From NCBI GenBank assembly GCA_040222015.1, contig JAVJWO010000216.1, positions 32,001 to 96,000 on the forward strand: 64,000 bases of DNA, in the 5' to 3' direction. The notes under the pieces were generated by a model. It saw nothing but the letters and a program-made list of their open reading frames with translations. It was not told where the DNA came from and made no database searches. The stretch's first letter is position 1. Each line of letters begins with the position of its first letter. Shown in pieces: positions 20,405 to 34,073 of the stretch. Position numbers and translations under genes: made by a program. Source of the stretch: Coleofasciculus chthonoplastes F2-STO-03 (GTDB lineage: Bacteria > Cyanobacteriota > Cyanobacteriia > Cyanobacteriales > Coleofasciculaceae).

Positions 20405-20654
20405 GAGGTTTAGGGATTGTAACAATTCATGTAGAGACGTGCCATGGCATATCTGCCAATTGATTTTGTGTAGGGGCGGGTTTAGCCGTTTCATTTTGGT
20501 ATCTACCGATAACCTTTCAACAAAACCCGCCCTTTTTCGTCTTGGAGCCATAATTAGCTAAAGTTCCGTAACAATTTGACCAATCGCGAATTGCATAAAG
20601 GACTTGTGCAGGATAATATTAGGTATCCAATAAGTTGAGTTGGGAAGACTGGTC

Positions 20655-23135
20655 ATGGGTAGCCGACGGCGTCTTAACAAAAAAACATCCTGGGAATCGA
20701 CTTCTTTACCAGTGCCGAATCCTTTACAACCGCGCCCATTTGGTAAAGGTATCCAGGCGAGACGAGCCGAGTTGCCAACAACCAATGTGTTGCAAACTCG
20801 TCCCTTCGGGACTCCCAAGCAAGCATCTACGCCTAAACAAGAGATGCCAGAGCTCCAAGCTAAACTCAAACAGGCAGAGAGCTTTGGCTATAATGCCGCT
20901 AATATTCCCACCGTACCTTCGAGTAACGCTACACCGATTCAGGCAAAGCTGACTATAGGAGAACCGAATGATAAGTATGAGCAGGAAGCGGATCAAGTAG
21001 CATCTCAAGTCGTCAATCAGATTAATTCGCCTCAGACTCAGCCGTCGGTTCAGGGTAAGACAGTACAACGAGAAGCCTTACCCGAAGAAGAGGAAGAAAC
21101 TCCCGTTAGTGCCAAACTCGAATCAGGGACAGTGCAACGGGAAGCCTTACCCGAAGAAGAGGAAGAGGAAACTCCCGTTAGTGCCAAACTTGAATCTGAC
21201 ACTATCCAGCGTCAAGGTATTTCTCCTGAAGAGGAAGAGAAAAAAAAAATTAGCCCAAAGTTAATGAGGAAATCCCAATCGGGAACAGGGAGTACAAATG
21301 CCTCCGTTAACTTAGAAGAATCCATTCAACAAAAGCGGGGTCAGGGACAATCCCTCTCAGAGGATATCCGCGAACCGATGGAGCAAGCATTTGGGGCTGA
21401 TTTCAGCGGGGTAAAAGTACACACTGATAGCCAATCTGACCAGCTTAATCACTCAATTCAAGCGCGTGCTTTCACAACAGGACAAGATGTTTTCTTCAAA
21501 CAGGGCGAATACAACCCTGGAAGTAAGGATGGACAGGAGTTGCTCGCTCATGAGTTAACCCATGTTGTCCAGCAGACAGGTACTGTCCAGCGCGATGATG
21601 ATCCGGCAAAAAAAGACAAAAAAAAGTCTAAGAGTACCATTGAGGAACTCAGAGACGCATTGGGCGGTTGGGGTGCAGATTCAGCCCAGATTTTGCAGTT
21701 GCTAGGTAAAGCGTCTGCCTCTGAGAAGAAGCAGATATTAACTGACTCTAAACTGATGGGTCAACTCCAAAGTAAACTGAGTCGCCGTGAGATGATTCAA
21801 GCCCTCAATGCTCTGGAGGCTCCCCTTAAACAAAAGCTGAATGCAGCAATGAAGGGTTGGGGTTGTGATGCTCAGGTGATTAAGGATCTGACAGCCAGTG
21901 CCAAAGACACAGAGAAGAAAGCCGTTTTAGCTGACACAGCACTGGTTGCTCGACTCTCCAGCGAATTGAGTCGAGCCGAGATGCTAGTGATTCTGGGTAA
22001 TCTCAATGCCCCTATCAAAGACAAACTCAATGCGGCGATGAAGGGTTGGGGTGCTGATGCCGAAGCGATTAAGGCTCTGACCAAGGGGGCATCGGATGCA
22101 GAAAAGCAGGGGATTTTGAATGACACAGCGCTGGTTGCTCGACTCTCAAGCGAGTTGAGTCGAGCCGAGATGCTAGTGATTCTGGGTAATCTCAATGCCC
22201 CTATCAAAGACAAACTCAATGCGGCGATGAAGGGTTGGGGTGCTGATGCCGAAGCGATTAAGACTCTGACCAAGGGGGCATCAGATACAGACAAGCAGGC
22301 AGTTTTAAATGATGCGGCACTGGTATCGAGGCTTTCGAGTGAGTTGAGTGGGGAATCATATACCACCATTATTCTCACGTTGTTGGCAGGGGTTACTGAC
22401 GCAGATTTTGATACGTTCATCAAAAGCATGACCCAAAGCCAAACTCAAGCTCTTTTGAACAATATTTCAACCTCAGATCAGGCTACTTATGCAGCCTTAA
22501 TTGAGAGAATAAAAACTGCTCGGATCATTGCGACAGGTGAAAATATGCTGGGAGAGTTGCAATGGCGTGGGGGTTCTGGACCTGATCAGAGTGCTGGCTA
22601 TCAAGTGAACGAAACTACAACTTGGGGTCACCAGAATGATTTTGCCAGATGGATTCGTGGTAATGGTCCTGAGCCAACTCCTCCCAACGACACGATGAAC
22701 TGTTGGGAAGGGGTACTTTTTATGGCATATAAAGCAGGTGTAGTTAACAAGAGTTGGCTGGTTGATATTCATGATGCAGCAGCTAAGGCTGGACAAAGTG
22801 CGGCAAGTATAGACGCATATAATTCTGTTTTAGAGAGCAGATTATATTCCGGAGCTCGCACGGAAGTTCTATATGATCCTGGCACAGGTCTGAGAACGGG
22901 TACTATTCCAGCCGGAAATATTATTTTTATTAATAGACTGAATCATGTTGTGCTTTCTAAAGGGACAACAGATGGGGGGGGTAGGCATGAGGTACTTAGC
23001 TTATGGGTACTTCCCAACCCAGGACAGCCTGTAGGTGTGTGGACAGGTAGCGAGATTGGTGTACTACAAGATACGACATTAGAAGAAGTCAGTCAGCCAG
23101 GACAAAAAGTAGAATTTGCCCCACCTCCTTGGTAA
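20655..23135 (+). CDS. DUF4157 (eCIS core domain) protein with annexin-like repeats and C-terminal Cys/His papain-like putative effector domain
   Basis: IQAKLTIGEPNDKYEQEAD; MEQAFGADFSGVKVHTD..ARAFTTGQD..LLAHELTHVVQQ (DUF4157); repeats of AMKGWG.D; C-terminal MNCWEG..HVVLS. Confidence 0.88.
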   Translation: MGSRRRLNKKTSWESTSLPVPNPLQPRPFGKGIQARRAELPTTNVLQTRPFGTPKQASTPKQEMPELQAKLKQAESFGYNAANIPTVPSSNATPIQAKLTIGEPNDKYEQEADQVASQVVNQINSPQTQPSVQGKTVQREALPEEEEETPVSAKLESGTVQREALPEEEEEETPVSAKLESDTIQRQGISPEEEEKKKISPKLMRKSQSGTGSTNASVNLEESIQQKRGQGQSLSEDIREPMEQAFGADFSGVKVHTDSQSDQLNHSIQARAFTTGQDVFFKQGEYNPGSKDGQELLAHELTHVVQQTGTVQRDDDPAKKDKKKSKSTIEELRDALGGWGADSAQILQLLGKASASEKKQILTDSKLMGQLQSKLSRREMIQALNALEAPLKQKLNAAMKGWGCDAQVIKDLTASAKDTEKKAVLADTALVARLSSELSRAEMLVILGNLNAPIKDKLNAAMKGWGADAEAIKALTKGASDAEKQGILNDTALVARLSSELSRAEMLVILGNLNAPIKDKLNAAMKGWGADAEAIKTLTKGASDTDKQAVLNDAALVSRLSSELSGESYTTIILTLLAGVTDADFDTFIKSMTQSQTQALLNNISTSDQATYAALIERIKTARIIATGENMLGELQWRGGSGPDQSAGYQVNETTTWGHQNDFARWIRGNGPEPTPPNDTMNCWEGVLFMAYKAGVVNKSWLVDIHDAAAKAGQSAASIDAYNSVLESRLYSGARTEVLYDPGTGLRTGTIPAGNIIFINRLNHVVLSKGTTDGGGRHEVLSLWVLPNPGQPVGVWTGSEIGVLQDTTLEEVSQPGQKVEFAPPPW
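21932..22309 (+). repeat. 189-bp (63-aa) near-identical intragenic tandem duplication
   Basis: TGACACAGC.CTGGTTGCTCGACTCTC.AGCGA starts at 21932 and again at 22121. Confidence 0.9.
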
Positions 23136-23202
23136 ATGTAAGTTCAGAGTTAGCTTTTTATAGGCAAGTTCTTAACTGTAGCCTATTTCATGACAAAATA
23201 AG

Positions 23203-24678
23203 GTGATGAAGGTAAAACCAGTCTCATTTATATGTCTCGCTTTTCTAATGCTTGGCTTATCTGGAAATTGTCAGAAAGAGTCAAACAGTCAGATACCGGA
23301 AATTAGACAGGGAGAAATGCTGCCCAAAATTGATAGTGATGAGGAATTATCTATGCAGTTGAAATATATTCCAAATTTAATCATCTCAATTCCTTGGGGA
23401 AATCAGGAACACTCGATTCCTCACACAGCTTATGAAAAAGTTTCGCTATCAGGAATGTTTACAGGTCAATCCAAACGAAAAATAAGACCTGTGTACCCGA
23501 TACGTCTTGATCAGGATGAAAATTTATATCTGATTTTTGATAGTCCTCAAGGGGCGGCTCCATCGGAAAGAAAATATAGACTAATGCGTTTCAATAATCA
23601 GGGTAATTTGACTGATGAATTTGATATTAATCTAAATGCGGACAGTATAGAAAGGTGGCAGATTCTCGATTTCCATCCTGATCACCAAGGTGGAGTTTAT
23701 CTGTTAGAAGTTTTGGGGACAACCCAACACCAACTATTTCATCGACTGCGCCGAGTTAATTCACAATCTCAGGAAATATGGAGTAAAAAAGAAATTCTAA
23801 ATTATCGAGATTTAGATTTTTACAAATTGGCAGGTAAACTGGAATATTTGATTGCTCCTGATCGAGATTCACTTTACTTACCAACTCGTTATCCTAAACA
23901 AGGGTTGGCGAGTTTTGATGTTAATACCGGAGATATAATTTCAGCTAATCAATGGAATGAATCGGCAAGTAAATTGACGATCACTGCATCTCATGAAGTC
24001 TATTATAATCGTATTTTAGATGATGCTTCGAGGAAAAGACATGTTTTGATTAGGCAAAATTTAAGTAATGGCAACCGAGAAGTTATAGAATCTGAAATTC
24101 AATATCTACATGACTTAGCGGGTGTTGATGCAGAGGGTAAAATTTATCCGCGTATTCACAATGGTATAGCACGCTTATCAGACCAAGGTAAGTTAGAGTG
24201 GCAACAATCTATTTACGGAATCGTTGTCAGGTCAGAGGATCAGCATATTTTTATATGCAGTCGAGCAGATAGAGTTGAGAATACCGTTATTCTGGAGGTA
24301 GAACAGTACGACAGTTCAGGAAATAAAATTAAAAAATTCACCTTCCAATTACCCGAACAACAGCTTCAAGTTAAAGGGGACTTACCTCGATTGATCAGTG
24401 TTGATCAAAAATCAAGGTTCTATTTCTATGGCGGTGAAACAGATCATCAAGCTGGAACTTTGTTTGTTTTTTCTTCAGAAGACCAATTGCCGAAAATTCA
24501 GTCTTTGGCAGAAACTGATCCTGAAGGTTTTCCATTGTTCAATAAAGTTAATCAAGAACTATTGCCAATAGAGTCGCAAGTCGGCTCGCCAAATATGTTT
24601 GAAATTGATTCACTCGGTCATGTGTATATCCCATTGAGCGATCCTCAAGGCTTCAAAGTTATCCGGCTCCAACCGTAA
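23203..24678 (+). CDS. Hypothetical exported/lipoprotein, beta-rich; candidate immunity or partner protein
   Basis: Hydrophobic signal peptide ending LSGNC; recurring D..G.xY strands suggest a beta-propeller; visibly AT-rich. Confidence 0.65.
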   Translation: MMKVKPVSFICLAFLMLGLSGNCQKESNSQIPEIRQGEMLPKIDSDEELSMQLKYIPNLIISIPWGNQEHSIPHTAYEKVSLSGMFTGQSKRKIRPVYPIRLDQDENLYLIFDSPQGAAPSERKYRLMRFNNQGNLTDEFDINLNADSIERWQILDFHPDHQGGVYLLEVLGTTQHQLFHRLRRVNSQSQEIWSKKEILNYRDLDFYKLAGKLEYLIAPDRDSLYLPTRYPKQGLASFDVNTGDIISANQWNESASKLTITASHEVYYNRILDDASRKRHVLIRQNLSNGNREVIESEIQYLHDLAGVDAEGKIYPRIHNGIARLSDQGKLEWQQSIYGIVVRSEDQHIFICSRADRVENTVILEVEQYDSSGNKIKKFTFQLPEQQLQVKGDLPRLISVDQKSRFYFYGGETDHQAGTLFVFSSEDQLPKIQSLAETDPEGFPLFNKVNQELLPIESQVGSPNMFEIDSLGHVYIPLSDPQGFKVIRLQP

Positions 24679-24730
24679 CGATACTGCCACAGGGGATAAA
24701 CGGGAATAGGATTATTCTATAGGTTTAGGT

Positions 24731-25609
24731 ATGGATATTAAACCCCTCAAAAAACTTGCCTCATTCCAGGATCTTGAAGTTGTACCAGACCTAGACAAAG
24801 TGTTGGGACAATTGTACCCCGCTCTAGCAAACTATACAGAATTAGAGTTTCGTTCTGATGGTAAACGTATTGATTTGATTACCTTAAGCAATGATCTCGA
24901 TGCCGTTGATGATTTTTTATCAGTACTCGGAGATCGGGGAACTACTAAGGCAGAATTGCTCACAATGACCGCACTGTCTAATTTTGGAGCAGGTAGTGTT
25001 ATAGGGATGAAGTTGCCAGTGGCTGGGTCAGTGATTGGGGGAGAAATGTATGTCAGGGCGGCTATTTCCCTTGCTGAAGTAGAGTACTTTTTAAAACAAC
25101 ATGGGGTAGGTTCAGAAGCGATCGCGCAGATTTCAGGATTAGCTCAAATCTTTGAAAAGGATTACACTCATATTCTGGCAGCCGATGCCACGTCTCCTCC
25201 CAGTTTTAGCGTATTTTTCACCACCTATCTCGTTCCCGGAGAGGAACAACATGACCGCGATCGCTTGCAGCAGGCGCTTGTGAGAACGGGTGTCACGGAA
25301 GATGGTATTGAAAAGTTTCTGCCCTTACATCGTTTGCTGGGTGCCTCACGACCCGAAACTCTCTACTTTTCTTGGAGGATCAAGAATGGCAAACCGACAA
25401 TTGGAGCTAAAATCGACTACGCGGGTGTTCGACTTGGACTTGTTTCAGAGATGCTTTCAGGGATCGGTGTAGCTAATCAAGCTAGACTCCCCATCAAATG
25501 GGGTACACAGCTTAATGTACGACAAGCTAACTATGCGGGTCTTGTCATTGGCTCTCACAATCTATCAGGTGTTCGCGCCTACTTTACCATTCCCAGTACA
25601 ACACACTGA
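24731..25609 (+). CDS. Hypothetical protein
   Basis: 292-aa ORF co-oriented within the effector cassette; no recognised motif. Confidence 0.7.
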   Translation: MDIKPLKKLASFQDLEVVPDLDKVLGQLYPALANYTELEFRSDGKRIDLITLSNDLDAVDDFLSVLGDRGTTKAELLTMTALSNFGAGSVIGMKLPVAGSVIGGEMYVRAAISLAEVEYFLKQHGVGSEAIAQISGLAQIFEKDYTHILAADATSPPSFSVFFTTYLVPGEEQHDRDRLQQALVRTGVTEDGIEKFLPLHRLLGASRPETLYFSWRIKNGKPTIGAKIDYAGVRLGLVSEMLSGIGVANQARLPIKWGTQLNVRQANYAGLVIGSHNLSGVRAYFTIPSTTH

Positions 25610-25632
25610 CGAATGGGAGAACCTAATGCTCA

Positions 25633-26142
25633 GTGGATTATGAACCGCTTTTCAAACCGGAGCCACCAATATTCTATGTTCAAGTGGCAGACGAATCCTC
25701 CTTTGCTGATTTGTATCTTCAGTTAACATCAGATTATCCACAGGCGGCGATTCGGATGATTAGGGGCAATAAAAGTAAAACAGTGCCTGACTTTTTCAAT
25801 GAAATAGGTGCAGCTCTTCAGTTTCCCTACTACTTTGGCGAAAACTGGGATGCTTTTGAGGAGTGCATTACGGATCTCTGTTGGCTCGATGGGGAAGCTT
25901 ATCTGTTAATGGTAAATCAGGCTCATCTACTTTTCCAAGACGCCACTCAAAATGATTTCAAGATCTTGATGCAAGTGTTATCGGATGCTCATGAAACATG
26001 GTTGACGCAACCTCAAATCGTTAATGAAGAAGAACAACCAACGGCGTTCCATGTTTTGTTAGCTTGTACGGATGAGTATCGTTCTGCCTTGACACAACGA
26101 TTGACTGATTCTGGGGTAGAGTTTCAGATGTTTTGTCAGTAG
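25633..26142 (+). CDS. Barstar-family (RNase inhibitor-like) protein
   Basis: ALQFPYYFGENWDAFEECITDLCWL barstar signature. Confidence 0.85.
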   Translation: MDYEPLFKPEPPIFYVQVADESSFADLYLQLTSDYPQAAIRMIRGNKSKTVPDFFNEIGAALQFPYYFGENWDAFEECITDLCWLDGEAYLLMVNQAHLLFQDATQNDFKILMQVLSDAHETWLTQPQIVNEEEQPTAFHVLLACTDEYRSALTQRLTDSGVEFQMFCQ

Positions 26143-26256
26143 GTGGACAGCATACAAGTTTGAGAAGAAGTAACTTTAGCTTGGCGATAAAACTTGACAT
26201 AGACACGAAATAATGCTATGTGTCAAGTATATCTCCAGTTAAATTTGGAGGAGGCT

Positions 26257-27087
26257 ATGGGTATCCGACGACGAATCCGCAAAAAAAGGTCTGGGGAAGA
26301 CGAGTTTATCCCAGCACCGAGTTCGTTACAGACGCGCTCATTCGGTAATGGTATCCAAGCAAGACTTGCTAAGTTACCTGTCACTAATCTATTGGAAACA
26401 CGCCCCTTTGGTTCTCCCAAAAAGGCATCCACTTCATCCAAGGAAACCGCAGATATCCAGACGCAACTGAAACAGACGGAACGTTTTGGGTATAACGCGG
26501 CAAATATTCCTGTGTTCCCACCCAAGAAATCGAAAAAGAAACCGAAAAAATCAAAAGGGAAAGCGTCTCATCCAGATCAAATCGTCACCCATAACCATCC
26601 CGGTGGAACACCTCTGAATCAGGGTGATATTTTATCCGCGATCGCAAAAGACCCCAAAGAGGTAAAAGCCGTGGGTGATTATGGTAAATTTAGCCTGCGG
26701 CGTCAGCAGGATACCTGGCAAATTAGTCAAGAGCAAGTTGCGAGGGCGTATGCTCAAGGGGTTGAGCAGTGGTTGCGAGAATGTCCCAAGGAATTAACGG
26801 AACATTATCCAGGGAAAAAGGATATCCCACAAGCTGGAGCAACGTTTAAACAAGATCTGTTTATGGCAAACTATTTTGCGGGCAAAATTTTGGCAGAGCA
26901 AAGTCGAGGTGCTGTGGTTTACGAACACCCTGATGAGAAGGAACTAATCCAAAAACGGGCGAACCTGTACCGCGAGAGAATTGTTGTCCCACTTAAGCCA
27001 ACCTCCCCTATCAACGCTAATCCGGCGGGTACGAGTCGGGGAACAAAGCTGCAAACCCCGAAATTGATTCGCGATCGCATGGAATAG
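26257..27087 (+). CDS. Putative effector sharing its N-terminal leader with the DUF4157 protein; HNHP (JAB/MPN-like) motif
   Basis: GGAGGAGG RBS before ATG 26257; N-terminus homologous to the 20655 gene; IVTHNHPGGTPLNQGD. Confidence 0.75.
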   Translation: MGIRRRIRKKRSGEDEFIPAPSSLQTRSFGNGIQARLAKLPVTNLLETRPFGSPKKASTSSKETADIQTQLKQTERFGYNAANIPVFPPKKSKKKPKKSKGKASHPDQIVTHNHPGGTPLNQGDILSAIAKDPKEVKAVGDYGKFSLRRQQDTWQISQEQVARAYAQGVEQWLRECPKELTEHYPGKKDIPQAGATFKQDLFMANYFAGKILAEQSRGAVVYEHPDEKELIQKRANLYRERIVVPLKPTSPINANPAGTSRGTKLQTPKLIRDRME

Positions 27088-29275: not shown

Positions 29276-29381
29276 TATAGCAATAGACACATCGATTAGG
29301 ACGTTCGGCACCATTGTAGAGACGCGCCATGGCGCGTCTCTACATAAATGATGTGTCCTAACAGCCATGGCGGTTGCTATA
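29276..29381. mobile_element. Miniature inverted-repeat element with internal REP-like palindrome
   Basis: TATAGCAA..TTAGGAC / GTCCTAA..TTGCTATA ends enclosing GTAGAGACGCGCCATGGCGCGTCTCTAC; related ends near 46897 and 51962. Confidence 0.65.
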
Positions 29382-29524
29382 CTTGCTTACCTCACGGTAA
29401 CTTTGGATTAATCACCCGCTATACCGTAGGGTGGGCATTGCCCACCAACCTTAATGATCGTGCGATTTAGAGTTGATTGGGCTTGCCCACCTCACGTTAC
29501 AATTCGCTAAAAAGAATAGGGTTT

Positions 29525-30076
29525 TTATTCATTGTTGGTAATTACCAAAAACTCATTGGGAACGCTTGACTGCACGTTATAGAAAGTGGGAGTATACTGA
29601 CGATTTTGATCCAAAATCTTTCTGAGTGTATATCCCCAAGCGTCGGAGAGTCCTAACAACCAAGAGTTTTTTCGCTCCCAGGTATTGCCTTGCATGTCGT
29701 CATCCAGTTGATTCATTGTGAATTCCGCAATCCACTTGGGTAAACCGAATCCGAACACAATCGGGGTGATTTGGGCATGGCGGAGGGTTTCATCGAACTG
29801 AACTTTATAGGTTAATTTGGTTAAATTAACAATATTGAGTAACCGACGCCCTTTATCGGAAACACTAAATGTCCACTGAAATGGAGAAAATACCGAGACT
29901 AATAATGTTCGACTCCTCGCGTCCCATTTACCATCTTCTAATGTCAGACAATCATCGGGAAAAGGATTCCCATCCATAAAAAAGACCCCTTTCAGAATGT
30001 CAGGTAAATCAGTTCCCCTGTCTTGTTTCATCCAAGTGCCAATATCGTTAAGTTGCCGAGTTTCAATGGTTAGCAT
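29525..30076 (-). CDS. Hypothetical protein directly downstream of the P450
   Basis: 183-aa ORF with motif LPDILKGVFFMDGNP; 65 bp after the P450 stop, same strand. Confidence 0.75.
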   Translation of the reverse strand: MLTIETRQLNDIGTWMKQDRGTDLPDILKGVFFMDGNPFPDDCLTLEDGKWDARSRTLLVSVFSPFQWTFSVSDKGRRLLNIVNLTKLTYKVQFDETLRHAQITPIVFGFGLPKWIAEFTMNQLDDDMQGNTWERKNSWLLGLSDAWGYTLRKILDQNRQYTPTFYNVQSSVPNEFLVITNNE

Positions 30077-30141
30077 GATTTGTTTTTAGCTTGTCGTGTT
30101 GATCGAGGTAAAACGGTATTCGCCAAGGCAATACCTACTAA

Positions 30142-31488
30142 TTAGTTTACTCGCCGTGCAAAGCCATTCAACACTAAATTTGGCTTAAAGGGAGCAAACT
30201 TTTTCATATCCCATTCTACACCAGAAACGGAACGCCATTGATAGTGCTTGAATGCATATAAACAGAACAGTTTTACAATCGCAATCGATAGGGCTCTGCC
30301 CGGACAGTTGCGTTCCTGATTCGAGCCATTCCAGGATAAGAGATCGCTGTAATCTCGTGTAGTTTTAAATGTATCTGGCTCTTCATATTTGTCAGGATCG
30401 CGATTCGCCGTAAACAGGGAAGCGATTAGACGAGTTCCCTTTTGGAATGGACATCGCTGACCGCCAATTTCTACTTCCATCGGTTCGGTAGACATTTGAT
30501 TGAGAAAGCGAACGGGTGGATAAAGACGTGCTGTTTCAAAAATTACCTTTTCGGTTAATTCGAGTTGGGATAAGGTTCGGGCGTTTGGGGGAGTTTGACC
30601 ATCCCAAACGGTATCGATTTCAGCACTAACATTTGCTCTTAAGGCTTCATCTTGACATAAAACACCGAACACAGAGGCAAGGAGATCACTGGTTCCAGCA
30701 CTTCCGGCAACGTGGATCATATCAAACAGATTGTTGGCGACTTGTTGTTCATTTAACTGATACGACGCCCCGAACTCTAGATAATCTTGATACTTGGGAG
30801 ATTTTTTGTAAGTGTCTACTAACCCTTGGCGATGCTGAATGTGCGATCGCGTCTTATTCCTCAACAGTGTATTATGAATAAGATTGGGAACAGTCGCTAA
30901 TCCTAACCCTCCAATATAACCAACTGAGCCAGCAATTTCTTCCTCAGATAATTTGAGGTCAAGAATCAGTTCGTGTAATAGGGCGACGATCATTTTGGGT
31001 AAGTCGATTTTAACATCGATTATTCCCTGCTTGGTCGCTGTAGCTAGTCTTGTATCGACTAGCTGTGCCAGTGTCTCTGTCGTTTCTTCGGGTTCCGGTA
31101 AGGCGTGAAAAAATAACGCTCGGATTCCTGTATGTTCATCACCATTGGTTCCTAAACATAAGGGATGACCGAGAAAATAACTGCGAGCATTGATTTTCAA
31201 GGGTCCCAAATAATTATCCCGTTGCTGAGGTGTGGTTTCAACCAGTCTTTTGGCGTCAGCGTAGGAGGTATGGATGATTCCCTGATCCAAACCCAGAAAT
31301 TTATCGGAGATCCGTTCCTTCCGCACATACAAATAATCTCGCCATTGCTTGGTTAGTACCGGAAGGTCTAAAAAATAAGCCCTTAAACGAATGACTTTGC
31401 CAAGGGGATTGTTCTGACCAATTTTTGCCAAGAGGCGCGAGAACTTGAGTTGACGCTCATGGACTTCGAGTATTTTTTGATTGTCCAT
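30142..31488 (-). CDS. Atypical cytochrome P450 (candidate fatty-acid hydroperoxide-metabolising, CYP74-clan-like)
   Basis: ETARLYPPV (ExxR), ANRDP..Y.EPD.F, heme Cys in LSWNGSNQERNCPG; I-helix AGSAGT lacks the acid-alcohol pair. Confidence 0.85.
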   Translation of the reverse strand: MDNQKILEVHERQLKFSRLLAKIGQNNPLGKVIRLRAYFLDLPVLTKQWRDYLYVRKERISDKFLGLDQGIIHTSYADAKRLVETTPQQRDNYLGPLKINARSYFLGHPLCLGTNGDEHTGIRALFFHALPEPEETTETLAQLVDTRLATATKQGIIDVKIDLPKMIVALLHELILDLKLSEEEIAGSVGYIGGLGLATVPNLIHNTLLRNKTRSHIQHRQGLVDTYKKSPKYQDYLEFGASYQLNEQQVANNLFDMIHVAGSAGTSDLLASVFGVLCQDEALRANVSAEIDTVWDGQTPPNARTLSQLELTEKVIFETARLYPPVRFLNQMSTEPMEVEIGGQRCPFQKGTRLIASLFTANRDPDKYEEPDTFKTTRDYSDLLSWNGSNQERNCPGRALSIAIVKLFCLYAFKHYQWRSVSGVEWDMKKFAPFKPNLVLNGFARRVN

Positions 31489-31691
31489 CCTAATTCCTAT
31501 GGGTTTGGGTTGCTGGAAAGGGTTAATTTATAACTTTATCATCATACGTGTTGAACTTTATTGTGTTCGGCTCAATTTTGGCAAATAATCTCAACATTTC
31601 TTAATAAAATGAAGTGAGACTAAACCGACTTGAAAGATGAATAAAAATAGTATACAGTATAAATCTGTCCCAAAATGGAGCCAGTCGAGCC

Positions 31692-31877
31692 AGTTTAAAT
31701 GAGTTGTGAACACCAATAGGGCTGAAAATATTGCCCAGCAAGGAGCGCTATTTCACAACTGATTTAGAGGGAGCATCCAAATTTGGCACGTTGGCTCTTT
31801 AAATGGGGCTGAAACCCTTGCAATTGCTTTACTTGAGGTAATGCTTTGTCCAAAACGGGATGCTCCCGATTTAGACT
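31692..31877. mobile_element. Two nested MITEs; inner 99-bp element 31769-31867 flanked by an 8-bp target duplication
   Basis: Inner TIR GGGAGCATCC/GGATGCTCCC flanked on both sides by GATTTAGA; outer TIR AGTTTAAATGAGTTGTGAA / TTCACAACTGATTTAGACT. Confidence 0.8.
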
Positions 31878-32108
31878 CATCATCAATCATTGAATTTTCT
31901 CTAGTCCATGTATTGACAAATCTATTGCTATTTGCTAAAAAAGCCGCTTGTTTGTTGGTTATTGACCAATTGCTAATGGGTCAACAACTCATCGCCCTGA
32001 TCCGGCTTCAGCCTTGAGGCTATTTTATGAATAATTAGGGATTCCGGCATTATCCGAAACAAGACACCAATAAACTCGTAACCTTTCTTTTGACAAAAGG
32101 ATATCAAC

Positions 32109-34073
32109 ATGACCAAGACGCAAACGATTGTTCAAGAACTCTTACAAGTTTTAAAGCTCAGGCTAATTAACACGTCTAGCGTTCAGCAAAAACTCAAGAA
32201 AAAAGCGGCAAAACAACGATCGCAGTTAAGTAAAGTTGTGGGTCAGCTTGTCTTCAGTGACACCCAAAACCCCTTACATAATATGGAAGTGGAATTGTGG
32301 GATCGAGACATTGGCACGCCCGAAGATTATCTAGGGAAAGGGATAACGGATCGCAATGGGTATTTTGAGATTTACTATGATCCAGACCAAGCGGGGTTTA
32401 AGGACACCCCAGATTTAGAACTGAGAGTCATTGAAATTCGCAGCAGCTTCGATACCAACAATGAACTGGTGCTTACCAAGCGTCTCGCCTATACGATTAA
32501 AGGTCCTGATAATGTTACGCAAAAAGAGTATGACTTCGGCACTTGCACTGTTCCCTACTGGCTTTACAACGCCACCAACCCCTTCCCCCGCATTCTGTTT
32601 ACTGAGTTAGAGGGAACACCGGACGAAGATGCAATTGGTCGTAAACTACAAGGGTATGAAGCGGCAAATCATTTAACCCCAATTAAAGCCAAGCACGTTA
32701 TCAAAAATACGCTCAATCCGAATCAACCCTCTCTCCAGGAAATTCAAGCTGATTATCCACCCAATTCAACGATTGAACTAGAGCGAAAAAATCCGCGCTA
32801 CACCCGAAGTGATGAATTTTTTGGACTACGGGTTCTCAATGGGATGAATCCCTGCTTACCGAAAAAAAATAAGAGTAAGCCGAATGAGTACAAGGTTACG
32901 TTTAACTGGGATACTTACGAAAAAGATCAGATTCATGACCTGCACAACGTCGATGCGACGTTTGAGGTCAAAGATGGCAAGTTATTACCCACTTCGATTA
33001 CCATTCAAAGCCGATATCCTGATTCCTACGCTCCATTTTCTCCCCTGAAAGAACCGATTACCTATACCCCCAATGACGGCGAGAAATGGTTGCAGGCAAA
33101 GCGAATTTTCCGCACCAACACTTTCTTCGCGGCTGAGCTGATTGAACATTATATTAAAGCTCATTTACAGATGGAGCAATATACAGTTGCGGCTTTCCGT
33201 AACTTGAGAAAAAATCCCCTCCGTCTGATGTTAATTCCTCATCTCAAGAGCTTGATTAATATCAATCGACGGGCGGATACGGTATTGGTAGACCCAAATG
33301 AGGGCTATGTTGTCACGGCTGGTCCCTTGATTCCAGAAAGTGTGGTGCAGATTTGTCATGAGAGCATGTCGCAGTTGGATTGGAAAGGGTGGCAACCGCG
33401 TCAGCCGTTATGTGAAACGCATACCTTTGCTAAGATTGCTAATCTCTATTGGCAGCTTTTGACGGAATATATTGATGTCTTTTTCCAAACGTATCAGGAT
33501 GAGATTGAACGCGAATGGATTGAAATTCATCGGTTATCGGATGACTTGGTTAACCATAGTGTGGCGTATGAACCAGGAAAAGATGGTGGCGGCGACGATG
33601 GGTATGAATGGTATGATACCAATGAACTGACTCAGCCGAATAATTCCCGCCGCACCATCAATGGCAGTCTGAAAGTGGTGAGTCCGGTGACGCTATCGGA
33701 TAAACCCGATGCCAATGATATGGAATACTTAAAACAGTTCTGTCGGTTTGTGATTTTCCACGTAACCCTGTGGCATTCCTGGGTTAATGATTCCCAAACA
33801 GATGCTGGAGGAGAAGTCTTGTATAGTTCTCTCGGACTGCGGAATGGTAGTTTTGGGAATGAGGATGATCCGACAATTGCTCCAGATTCAGGAGAAGCGA
33901 CGCAACTGCTTTATTTGGTGAATGTGTTAACGGCGATTAAGTATGGATACATCATCAAGAATGAAGATGGGGATATTCCCGCCGAATTTCGCACAATTCT
34001 GTCAAATCACAAGCAAGATTTTGCCCAACTGGATTTTGATGTGAATAACATTAGAGCGCTGATTAATGTTTGA
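32109..34073 (+). CDS. Lipoxygenase-family protein with N-terminal transthyretin/carboxypeptidase-regulatory-like domain
   Basis: R.LNGMNP, W.QAK, EHYIKAHLQMEQ (two Fe His), PHLKSLININRRA, HSWVN, C-terminal INV carboxylate ligand. Confidence 0.88.
   Translation: MTKTQTIVQELLQVLKLRLINTSSVQQKLKKKAAKQRSQLSKVVGQLVFSDTQNPLHNMEVELWDRDIGTPEDYLGKGITDRNGYFEIYYDPDQAGFKDTPDLELRVIEIRSSFDTNNELVLTKRLAYTIKGPDNVTQKEYDFGTCTVPYWLYNATNPFPRILFTELEGTPDEDAIGRKLQGYEAANHLTPIKAKHVIKNTLNPNQPSLQEIQADYPPNSTIELERKNPRYTRSDEFFGLRVLNGMNPCLPKKNKSKPNEYKVTFNWDTYEKDQIHDLHNVDATFEVKDGKLLPTSITIQSRYPDSYAPFSPLKEPITYTPNDGEKWLQAKRIFRTNTFFAAELIEHYIKAHLQMEQYTVAAFRNLRKNPLRLMLIPHLKSLININRRADTVLVDPNEGYVVTAGPLIPESVVQICHESMSQLDWKGWQPRQPLCETHTFAKIANLYWQLLTEYIDVFFQTYQDEIEREWIEIHRLSDDLVNHSVAYEPGKDGGGDDGYEWYDTNELTQPNNSRRTINGSLKVVSPVTLSDKPDANDMEYLKQFCRFVIFHVTLWHSWVNDSQTDAGGEVLYSSLGLRNGSFGNEDDPTIAPDSGEATQLLYLVNVLTAIKYGYIIKNEDGDIPAEFRTILSNHKQDFAQLDFDVNNIRALINV

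Follow-up and report, generated by a model that had tools for sequence, protein, structure and literature searches.

A lipoxygenase (LOX), a cytochrome P450 of family CYP227 and a 183-aa protein modelled as a lipocalin-like barrel are grouped in cyanobacterial genomes more often than chance would allow, and the trio is supported as a conserved, functionally linked unit. The recurrence of this grouping in many cyanobacteria, together with a natural protein in which the three parts are fused, suggests that the trio likely forms a fatty-acid-peroxide pathway. Building on the observed gene linkage, fusions, motif changes, tree position and LOX replacement, we consider it probable that the LOX makes a hydroperoxide, that CYP227 rearranges it without any reductant, and that the barrel protein handles the product.

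Organization of the locus

The window, i.e., the whole stretch of DNA that was analysed, comprises 64,000 nt from Coleofasciculus chthonoplastes F2-STO-03 (GCA_040222015.1, contig JAVJWO010000216.1, positions 32,001-96,000, forward strand). The relevant features, in window coordinates, are the following:

29525..30076, minus strand: unannotated protein of 183 aa with a lipocalin-like barrel model (open reading frame, predicted structure)
30142..31488, minus strand: cytochrome P450, family CYP227, 448 aa (open reading frame, homology, motifs)
31489..32108, no strand: divergent intergenic region between P450 and LOX, 620 bp, presumed to carry both promoters
32109..34073, plus strand: lipoxygenase, 654 aa, of the CspLOX1 (PDB 5EK8) type (open reading frame, homology)

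The P450 gene and the 183-aa reading frame are separated by 65 bp, and the P450 and LOX genes stand head-to-head, 620 bp apart. A previous reading of the DNA, made from the sequence only, had described a LOX divergent from a two-gene unit, and the open reading frames agree fully with that description. A scan for promoters and terminators stayed at chance level (9 found versus 10.7 expected), with no promoter-like signal above chance in the 620-bp spacer. Four metatranscriptome runs all consist of contigs, and two of these runs cover genes and spacers evenly and include very long contigs, in a DNA-like manner, so that they are uninformative on transcription or on an operon. The flanking genes for a gamma-glutamyltransferase, a 254-aa protein and a pentapeptide protein were discarded as pathway members since they adjoin the unit only in Coleofasciculus-like loci.

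No ferredoxin or reductase occurs among the 11 neighbouring open reading frames that were scanned, in line with the sequence-only reading. However, the two canonical P450s of the genome have no visible adjacent ferredoxin-like reading frame either, so the missing ferredoxin beside CYP227 carries no weight and was dropped as evidence for independence from redox partners.

Conservation of the gene trio and natural fusions

The linkage of the three genes was assessed over 41 loci of the P450 family, 34 of which could be evaluated for an upstream LOX because their upstream DNA extends over 1.5 kb or more. A LOX is the immediate upstream neighbour of the P450 in 31 of these 34 loci and the barrel gene lies downstream of the P450 in 37 of 39 evaluable loci; the other flanking genes vary. 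The exceptions comprise L026 and L055, evaluable and devoid of any LOX nearby, and L019, where the LOX lies one gene away, while L003, L026 and genome G419 have no barrel gene. Usually, the LOX, P450 and barrel genes follow one another in the same direction and the LOX is of a 630-aa type, present in 27 of the 31 LOX-bearing loci; the remaining 4 contain a CspLOX1-type enzyme.

P450-LOX fusions account for 6 of the 150 best distant matches. Five of the six are devoid of the barrel, whereas P0160, present in two source collections, combines barrel, P450 and LOX in a single chain (barrel domain E 5.5e-26, hhalign 97.9%). The co-occurrence that the sequence-only reading had proposed to look for across genomes is therefore borne out both by gene order and by natural fusions, and its reservation that homologues might be unlinked to LOX genes elsewhere does not hold for most loci with an evaluable upstream region.

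The cytochrome P450 and its place among P450s

The P450 of the window matches Pfam PF00067 (E 1.7e-20) and displays an I-helix HVAGSAGT, a K-helix ETAR and a haem loop SWNGSNQERNC395. The segment A261-G-S-A-G-T266 aligns with AGYETT of CYP3A4/3A7, which puts Ala264-Gly265 in the place of the acid-alcohol pair. Throughout the family, the position of the catalytic Thr is occupied by Gly (71/71) and the acid position by a non-acid residue (69/71, the other two having Glu). Thr266, conserved in 68/71, follows the catalytic position by one residue, which leaves room for a shift of register. In the haem loop W386-NGSNQERN-C395, the Trp precedes the Cys by 9 residues, compared to 7 for the canonical Phe and 16 for the Trp of Arabidopsis AOS, which corresponds to an insertion of about 2 residues and not 9. 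Both motif changes that had been read from the sequence, the loss of the acid-alcohol pair (AGSAGT) and the replacement of FxxGxRxC by WNGSNQERNC with an insertion shorter than the 9 aa of CYP74, were thus upheld by alignment, family survey and residue counting.

In P450 nomenclature, more than 40% identity denotes the same family and 55% is the usual subfamily line. The window P450 belongs to CYP227, being 51.5% identical over 445 aa to P0037, a protein that begins and ends like CYP227A4 in the supplement of PMC7014017. In L049, the two ends of the P450 agree with the primers published for CYP227A1. Identities of 51% to CYP227A4 and 51-57% to related members are at or below the usual subfamily line. 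The P450s CYP227A1 (Nostoc punctiforme), CYP227A4 (Calothrix) and CYP227A5 (Rivularia) share the family and the motifs of the window P450, and a plasmid of Nostoc flagelliforme exhibits the same LOX-P450-small gene order, from which the window differs by a LOX of another clade in divergent orientation. The earlier suggestion of a separate family was right as regards the distinction from CYP74, but the family already has a name. A literature search found neither an enzyme assay nor a reported activity for CYP227.

Phylogenetic trees (LG+G4, built without redundant family members and without 11 incomplete or fragmentary rows) gather CYP227, the six P450-LOX fusions and a second barrel-linked P450 in one clade (support 100/99). 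CYP74-like proteins, which stand here as proxies for plant CYP74, form a clade of their own (100/100) with CYP227 outside, so that the comparison with the CYP74 clan called for by the sequence-only reading shows CYP227 not to be a member of CYP74. The CYP227 clade joins the CYP74-like proteins, to the exclusion of canonical P450s sampled from the same search, with a support of only 84/81 (SH-aLRT 91 in another tree). The I-helix Asn of CYP74 (N321 of AtAOS) is absent, since Ala261 (70/71) aligns with the Asn of the CYP74-like P0137 and P0175, whose best PDB matches are AOS (E 4e-39 and 1e-44, respectively). The nine-residue haem-loop insertion is absent as well, and the loss of the acid-alcohol pair, found in CYP227, is not unique to CYP74. 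PDB searches by fold and by sequence do not single out AOS: its structures reach Z 29.8, level with those of many ordinary P450s and below the best score of 31.7, and they rank low in the sequence search. An ESM Atlas search gave generic matches only. According to PMC13049297, fungal AOS and thromboxane synthase are known to split peroxides homolytically although they have no distal Asn.

Two other activities have to be weighed for this P450. CYP227 might be a true monooxygenase that relies on a general ferredoxin and oxidises a LOX-derived hydroxy fatty acid, the substrate hydroxyl replacing the missing Thr. Some Thr-less P450s, CYP7A1 and P450eryF, do use the substrate's own hydroxyl; moreover, the haem-loop insertion is so short that the redox-partner face may stay open, Thr266 is largely conserved, the fold is no nearer to AOS than to CYP90B1, CYP120A1 or BM3, and the canonical P450s of the genome likewise do without an adjacent ferredoxin-like gene. 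The invariant Gly at the Thr position nevertheless makes such an activity unlikely, as do the clade members fused directly to a LOX, which suggest a hand-over of the hydroperoxide itself, and the lack of a recurring reductase-like gene among the neighbour clusters of 42 loci, compared without a ferredoxin profile scan. A peroxygenase or peroxidase, by which the LOX hydroperoxide would oxidise a second molecule or simply be destroyed, with the barrel carrying lipid, would account equally well for the missing acid-alcohol pair and for the linkage to LOX; CYP152 peroxygenases appear among the weak sequence matches, and no LOX adjoins the second barrel-linked P450. Yet the Arg-Pro pair carried by CYP152 peroxygenases is not found in the CYP227 I-helix, there would be no point in keeping a dedicated LOX next to an enzyme that only detoxifies, and no conserved gene for a second substrate occurs in the family loci, so that this role appears quite unlikely. 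CYP227 is rather predicted to be a reductant-independent hydroperoxide isomerase or dehydrase.

The lipoxygenase and its replacement in the genus

The window LOX matches Cyanothece CspLOX1, a 9R-lipoxygenase (PDB 5EK8), over its full length (E 7.7e-282). Its residues H347, H352, H556, N560 and the C-terminal Val654 align with the same positions in 5EK8 (Ile at the C-terminus of the latter); these are taken to be the iron ligands, so the ligand set that had been described as intact is indeed complete. It is about 62% identical to a CspLOX1-like protein of genome G217, whose N-terminus reads as in 5EK8 and whose gene comes after that of a P450 from an unrelated family. CspLOX1-type genes elsewhere also adjoin other P450 families.

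At the Coffa stereo-control site, the window LOX possesses Ala389 instead of the Gly401 of CspLOX1, the R-specific Gly being absent. According to PMC5437038, Ala at this site marks S-specific lipoxygenases, so the window LOX is predicted to be S-specific and its product is probably 13S-configured. The 13S assignment is a prediction only, because Ala also occurs outside the cluster and the CspLOX1 G401A mutant is reported to yield some 11-HPODE. Ala at the Coffa site was accordingly rejected as a change specific to this cluster, being shared by 3/12 CspLOX1-type homologues from other genera. The usual partner LOX of the 630-aa type is closest to PDB 8X8F, a Pseudomonas LOX and CspLOX2, and its match with the CspLOX1 type is local and covers 82 aa; both types exhibit Ala at the Coffa site and are thus predicted to be S-specific. 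The genome encodes a second LOX (contig C134) and five desaturases, two of which carry motifs that we take to be those of the delta-12 and omega-3 types.

Among eight same-genus relatives, five contain the P450 and a full LOX side by side, two contain neither, and one retains only a LOX fragment, with neither P450 nor barrel. The head-to-head arrangement noticed in the sequence-only reading is real here and was found in no other genus; in this one, the usual co-directional 630-aa LOX has been replaced by a divergent CspLOX1-type enzyme. Since both LOX types occur beside the P450 (27 and 4 loci, respectively), the partner of the P450 is a LOX activity rather than one particular LOX gene.

The LOX of the window could also be an incidental neighbour, with the P450 and the barrel using another source of hydroperoxide, e.g., the LOX of contig C134. 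Its different clade and opposite strand compared to the usual partner, the second LOX itself, and the other P450 families beside CspLOX1-type genes would agree with this idea. It is nonetheless very improbable, given that the arrangement is kept in 5/5 same-genus genomes with the P450, that the remaining 3 show a joint absence of the genes, and that a chance landing exactly at the usual LOX site of the family is improbable.

The barrel protein

The 183-aa protein, which the sequence-only reading had also left without a name, drew no useful match from Pfam, NCBIfam, PDB or ESM Atlas. Its predicted structure (pLDDT 92) is rich in beta strands and forms a lipocalin-like barrel that ends in a helix and a strand; the secondary structure fits the lipocalin pattern, in which eight up-and-down strands make up the barrel and a helix and a ninth strand come after it. 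In fold comparisons it comes nearest to nitrophorins and various other barrels, with 133-137 residues aligned at an rmsd of about 4 Å and Z scores of 6.2-6.9, all below the caution line of Z 8, and the best Foldseek E value is 4e-3. An allene oxide cyclase (AOC) type of fold is not among the top 50 matches listed in three fold searches, although an unlisted family is not thereby excluded. The conserved polar residues are D35, N37, R135, N137, Y149 and R152. The barrel gene also accompanies the second, distant P450 of the CYP227 clade, and the five loci examined for it all lack a LOX in flanks of up to about 7 kb. The 183-aa family is a partner of P450s devoid of the acid-alcohol pair.

Comparison with known systems and proposed pathway

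The plant pathway from LOX through CYP74 (AOS/HPL/DES/EAS) to AOC similarly combines a LOX, a P450 without the acid-alcohol pair, a Trp-containing lengthened haem loop and a third small beta-barrel protein. It differs by the I-helix Asn and 9 inserted residues, against Ala261, about 2 residues and a separate clade in CYP227, and the barrel of the trio resembles lipocalins, AOC not being among the top 50 fold matches listed. According to PMC10813956, the CYP5164 clan consists of non-CYP74 P450s that rearrange 9- and 13-hydroperoxides and form a clan of their own, CYP5164B1 being the epoxyalcohol synthase of Ectocarpus, and CYP5164A3 and CYP50918A1 hydroperoxide bicyclases. That clan is eukaryotic, whereas CYP227 is cyanobacterial. 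The clade with CYP227 also contains algal and dinoflagellate sequences. None of the three enzymes was among the named matches of the searches for P450 relatives, and a search with the relative P0237 for named CYP5164 proteins led to a dinoflagellate family instead. The described partners of cyanobacterial LOX or 10S-dioxygenases (Acaryochloris, Nostoc) are catalase-related AOS/HPL with a catalase fold, not P450s, and fungal fusions join a P450 to a haem dioxygenase, not to a LOX; in both, nevertheless, the hydroperoxide made by an oxygenase has a haem enzyme of its own, as proposed here.

In the favoured pathway, the LOX would convert linoleic or alpha-linolenic acid to a hydroperoxide of S, probably 13S, configuration. 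CYP227 would split and rearrange it, with no need of NADPH or ferredoxin, to give a product of the epoxide type, by a homolytic O-O cleavage giving an alkoxyl and then an epoxyallylic radical, by analogy with the known chemistry of CYP74 and CYP5164. The barrel protein would bind or convert this reactive product. Given this mechanism, the leading candidate for the first product, if short of an even chance, is an epoxy alcohol or bicyclic ether; an allene oxide comes next as a tentative possibility, and a hemiacetal (lyase) and a divinyl ether or other product each seem improbable. As an accessory part, the barrel is slightly more probably an enzyme, i.e., an epoxide-opening hydrolase or cyclase, than only a carrier. 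It is doubtful that the trio represents a bacterial counterpart of the plant jasmonate triad, with CYP227 making an allene oxide and the barrel as a new type of allene oxide cyclase. If it did, the barrel would close the allene oxide to a cyclopentenone or another cyclic oxylipin, CYP227 would be the first member open to characterisation in a large clan that is sister to CYP74, and the same clan would supply hydroperoxide-rearranging enzymes in dinoflagellates and diatoms.

Biological significance

In the reviews consulted, P450s that rearrange hydroperoxides are listed for plants, algae, some proteobacteria and animals, and the cyanobacterial LOX partners named there are catalase-related. The unrelated LOX in place of the usual one offers a natural experiment on whether the pathway is selected for the 13S-hydroperoxide. 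If the pathway is true, it gives the unnamed barrel family a role and probably provides the downstream enzyme for the 630-aa 13-LOX of Nostoc. If CYP227 carries out hydroperoxide chemistry without the Asn and the insertion of CYP74, the reaction would extend to a widespread, unstudied clan, with a bearing on the origin of plant oxylipin signalling. The trio is likely an unstudied route from fatty-acid peroxides to new signalling or defence lipids.

The three-gene unit and its conservation

Reading of the open frames confirmed the positions proposed earlier for a lipoxygenase (LOX) gene, a P450 gene and a small gene in the window:

29525-30076, minus strand, 183-aa ORF (ORF reading)
30142-31488, minus strand, P450 of 448 aa (PF00067 match)
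32109-34073, plus strand, lipoxygenase of 654 aa (full-length alignment to PDB 5EK8)

The small gene and the P450 are separated by 65 bp, and the divergent P450 and LOX starts lie 620 bp apart. The LOX aligns over its full length with CspLOX1, the 9R-LOX from Cyanothece (PDB 5EK8; E 7.7e-282), and keeps H347, H352, H556, N560 and the C-terminal Val. Judged by the P450 (90-94% identity), the closest named genomes are Coleofasciculus MAGs.

The linkage of the three genes, proposed from the window alone, recurs across 41 family loci (4, plus 27 of 29 after the distant L045 and L046 had been dropped, plus 10 genome regions). Seven of them possess less than 1.5 kb of upstream DNA; in 31 of the 34 evaluable loci the gene directly upstream of the P450 encodes a LOX, the exceptions being L019, with the LOX one gene away, and L026 and L055, devoid of it. 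The small gene occurs directly downstream of the P450 in 37 of the 41 loci; among the other four, L003 and L026 are true absences, whereas the flank is too short in L033 and L041. Five pairs of loci are near-duplicates (P450 identity of at least 95%), and a cut-off of 70% identity divides the loci into seven groups, with an adjacent LOX in four, a near one in one, none in one and one not evaluable. Antisense shadow ORFs aside, every other neighbour cluster is confined to at most 12 of the 42 loci, window included. An annotated plasmid of Nostoc flagelliforme carries LOX, P450 and hypothetical genes in the same order as the family loci. The distribution of the unit is patchy, since the P450 is present in only 11 of 401 sampled cyanobacterial genomes. 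Individual loci show a tandem duplication of the P450 (L050:8029-10918, same contig as L023) and a P450 split into two overlapping frames (L056:9032-10382).

Beside the unit, upstream of a gamma-glutamyltransferase gene, lies a patch (20640-27087) resembling polymorphic toxin/immunity regions and variable among the loci of the genus. It encodes a protein of 831 aa with an eCIS core domain and annexin-like repeats, together with a barstar-like gene and a related ORF of 289 aa. Short repeats abundant in the genome (16-mers at 244 and 62 copies), probably dispersed palindromic elements, occur in the spacer (29316-29450) that separates the gamma-glutamyltransferase from the small gene.

Identity of the P450

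A protein search with the window P450 gave 98 matches, consisting of 87 close family members (37-100% identity), the named ones cyanobacterial except one, and 11 distant ordinary P450s. Published primers for CYP227A1 from Nostoc punctiforme (accessible text of PMC3411444) match both ends of the P450 at locus L049, and P0037, 51.5% identical to the window P450, reads as CYP227A4 among the seven CYP227A sequences in the part of the PMC7014017 supplement available. On sequence, the window P450 is thus a CYP227. CYP227A1 has been cloned as a reductase fusion among P450s screened on 47 small molecules; the available section of that work gives activity for CYP110E1 only and no CYP227A1 result. A full-text search, outside which most subscription papers lie, found CYP227 in the primer table, one unrelated listing and the PMC7014017 supplement only.

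The claimed loss of the I-helix acid-alcohol pair holds: the AGSAGT motif starting at A261 aligns with AGYETT of CYP3A4/3A7, so that Ala264-Gly265 occupy the positions of the usual acid and catalytic Thr. Among 71 aligned CYP227 members, His259, Gly265, Trp386, Arg393 and Cys395 are invariant, Thr266 occurs in 68, and position 264 is Ala in 62, Leu in 6, Glu in 2 and Gly in 1. The missing redox partner, also adduced by the sequence-only reading, loses its value as evidence, since the two canonical P450s of the genome likewise had no neighbouring ORF that looked like a ferredoxin.

Relation to CYP74

Beyond the family itself, a profile search with CYP227 against 1.84 billion representatives returned ordinary P450s, CYP74-like proteins and other P450s devoid of the acid-alcohol pair. 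P0137 and P0175, whose best PDB match is a plant allene oxide synthase (AOS; E 4e-39 and 1e-44), served as CYP74 proxies. Both possess an I-helix Asn, aligned with Ala261 of the window P450, and a full 9-residue haem-loop insert, whereas the CYP227 insert is about 2 residues, shorter as had been noted. A quick tree of 73 rows agrees with a maximum-likelihood tree (55 rows, LG+G4, 404 columns). In the latter, the CYP74-like rows fall into a single clade (support 100/100), and CYP227, 14 other P450s lacking the pair, six LOX-fused P450 domains and a second barrel-linked P450 form another (100/99), in line with the suspected separate family; the two clades join against the canonical P450s at only 84/81. 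The AlphaFold model of the window P450 (pLDDT 92) scores Z 29.8 against AOS, level with BM3, CYP51 and other P450s, and higher, at 31.7, against CYP90B1. From the missing Asn, the short insert, the tree and the fold scores, CYP227 stands outside CYP74 and may be its sister group.

The missing Asn leaves rearrangement chemistry possible, since fungal AOS and thromboxane synthase are described without it in the accessible part of PMC13049297. Epoxyalcohol synthases and hydroperoxide bicyclases have been placed in a separate CYP5164 clan (excerpts of PMC10813956, PMC12843491). The clade that holds CYP227 also contains sequences labelled as those of a diatom (Attheya) and of dinoflagellates (Biecheleria, Alexandrium, Durusdinium, Symbiodinium), P0226, P0208, P0277 and P0283. 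As diatoms are reported to have lost CYP74-like enzymes, their epoxyalcohol synthase being not yet identified (PMC10864609, in part), these are candidates for such enzymes, with contamination possible. In P0178, P0180 and P0203 (about 1000 aa), a haem-peroxidase/dioxygenase is joined to a CYP74-like P450 that has both the Asn and the long form of the haem loop.

Natural fusions and the barrel protein

Among the 150 matches listed, a P450 of the CYP227 clade is joined to a LOX domain in six (P0146, P0151, P0153, P0160, P0220, P0250), and no canonical P450 is so fused. P0160 (1107 aa; a cluster of two members, one each from ENA and NCBI) comprises a domain related to the 183-aa protein (E 5.5e-26; hhalign 97.9%), then the P450 (FAGVIGT, LSWNGSGFRKC), then the LOX.

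The 183-aa protein has 19 homologues besides its own cluster and belongs to no family in Pfam or NCBIfam. Its model (pLDDT 92) predicts a fold of the barrel type, rich in beta structure, with a helix and a strand at the C-terminus. The best matches in the fold comparison, to nitrophorins, retinol-binding proteins and designed barrels, are all weak (Z at most 6.9). D35, G36, N37, W68, W133 and R135 are invariant in 59 aligned sequences, and N137 (58), Y149 (58) and R152 (55) nearly so; P0160 keeps D35, N37, R135, N137, Y149 and R152.

The barrel gene occurs in 29 of 401 genomes: beside CYP227 in 11; in 2 as remnants broken by stop codons, near which no P450 was seen; and in 16 genomes of a single genus (g5; e.g., L107:5451-6812; one copy split) beside a second P450, about 24% identical to CYP227 and also devoid of the acid-alcohol pair (IAGLQGP). 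This second subfamily occurs in 22 of the 401 genomes, six of them without a barrel match. No LOX was found near it in the five regions read, and two checked genomes carry their LOX genes elsewhere. Owing to its pairing with either P450, the barrel follows the P450 clade rather than the LOX, as an accessory.

Exchange of the lipoxygenase

The usual partner, found in 27 loci, is a co-directional LOX of about 630 aa, closest to PDB 8X8F, a Pseudomonas LOX and CspLOX2, which shares with the window LOX an 82-aa local match only. NpLOX1 of N. punctiforme has 630 aa (PMC10177866) and the LOXs of that strain are described as 13-LOXs (bioRxiv 10.1101/2021.07.08.451587), so that, as far as the available text of both sources goes, the usual partners are probably NpLOX1 orthologues. 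In the window and four other Coleofasciculus loci, the LOX is of the CspLOX1 type and divergent from the P450; the usual partner has thus been swapped in this genus. Among eight same-genus genomes, five have the P450 and a full LOX adjacent, two have neither, and one has a LOX fragment without P450 or barrel.

At the Coffa site, which governs stereo-control, the window LOX has Ala389 where CspLOX1 has Gly401. At the matching place the 630-aa LOXs also lack Gly and have Ala or a different residue instead. An Ala there is characteristic of S-specific enzymes (PMC5437038, in part), and both partner types are hence predicted to yield an S-hydroperoxide, probably 13S. Caution on 13S comes from the Ala of 3 of 12 CspLOX1-type homologues of other genera, none beside a CYP227, and from the 6% 11-HPODE reported for the G401A mutant of CspLOX1 in the same partial source.

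CspLOX1-type LOXs outside the cluster often follow P450s of other families (L113:7031-8770, L114:6780-8150, L115:7040-8428, L116:5145-6494; also L061, L062). This holds for six of the eight closest other-genus homologues (62-67% identity), including the one that reads as CspLOX1 proper. The P450s concerned lie outside the CYP227 clade, and the pattern suggests additional, independent LOX-P450 pairings; at L116 a haem-peroxidase (dioxygenase-like) gene comes after the LOX. More distant LOXs of this type at L064 and L065 (42-44% identity) have a C-terminal Ser instead of Ile/Val and follow a small gene, which in L064 matches the MIF/tautomerase family. The second LOX of the window's genome (about 550 aa, CspLOX2-like) is the last of five same-strand genes on contig C134 (G000:C134:14080-20798), after an apparent flavin oxidoreductase, a pair of related proteins (about 500 aa each) and a 151-aa protein, possibly a second oxylipin operon.

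Predicted pathway and significance

The genome contains five desaturase-family genes, two of them with motifs that we take to be of the delta-12 and omega-3 types, so that 18:2 and 18:3 are probably available in this cell. The most economical reading, which reaches beyond linkage, motifs and tree, is a pathway in which the LOX would form a fatty-acid hydroperoxide, the P450 would cleave it homolytically to an alkoxyl and then an epoxyallylic radical, leading to an epoxy alcohol, bicyclic ether, allene oxide or hemiacetal, and the barrel would capture or convert the product. Such radical chemistry is described for CYP74 and CYP5164B1 in the accessible parts of PMC9214053 and PMC10813956. The hydroperoxide-metabolising enzymes of cyanobacteria are named as catalase-related proteins in the available portion of PMC8124189, and the full-text search, with most subscription papers outside it, turned up no publication that connects a P450 of cyanobacteria with LOX hydroperoxides.

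The trio is a real, conserved and uncharacterised three-part predicted oxylipin module, and falls, as a variant, within the theme of a LOX combined with a peroxide-rearranging P450. The window locus makes an addition of its own, the replacement of the usual LOX by an unrelated one.
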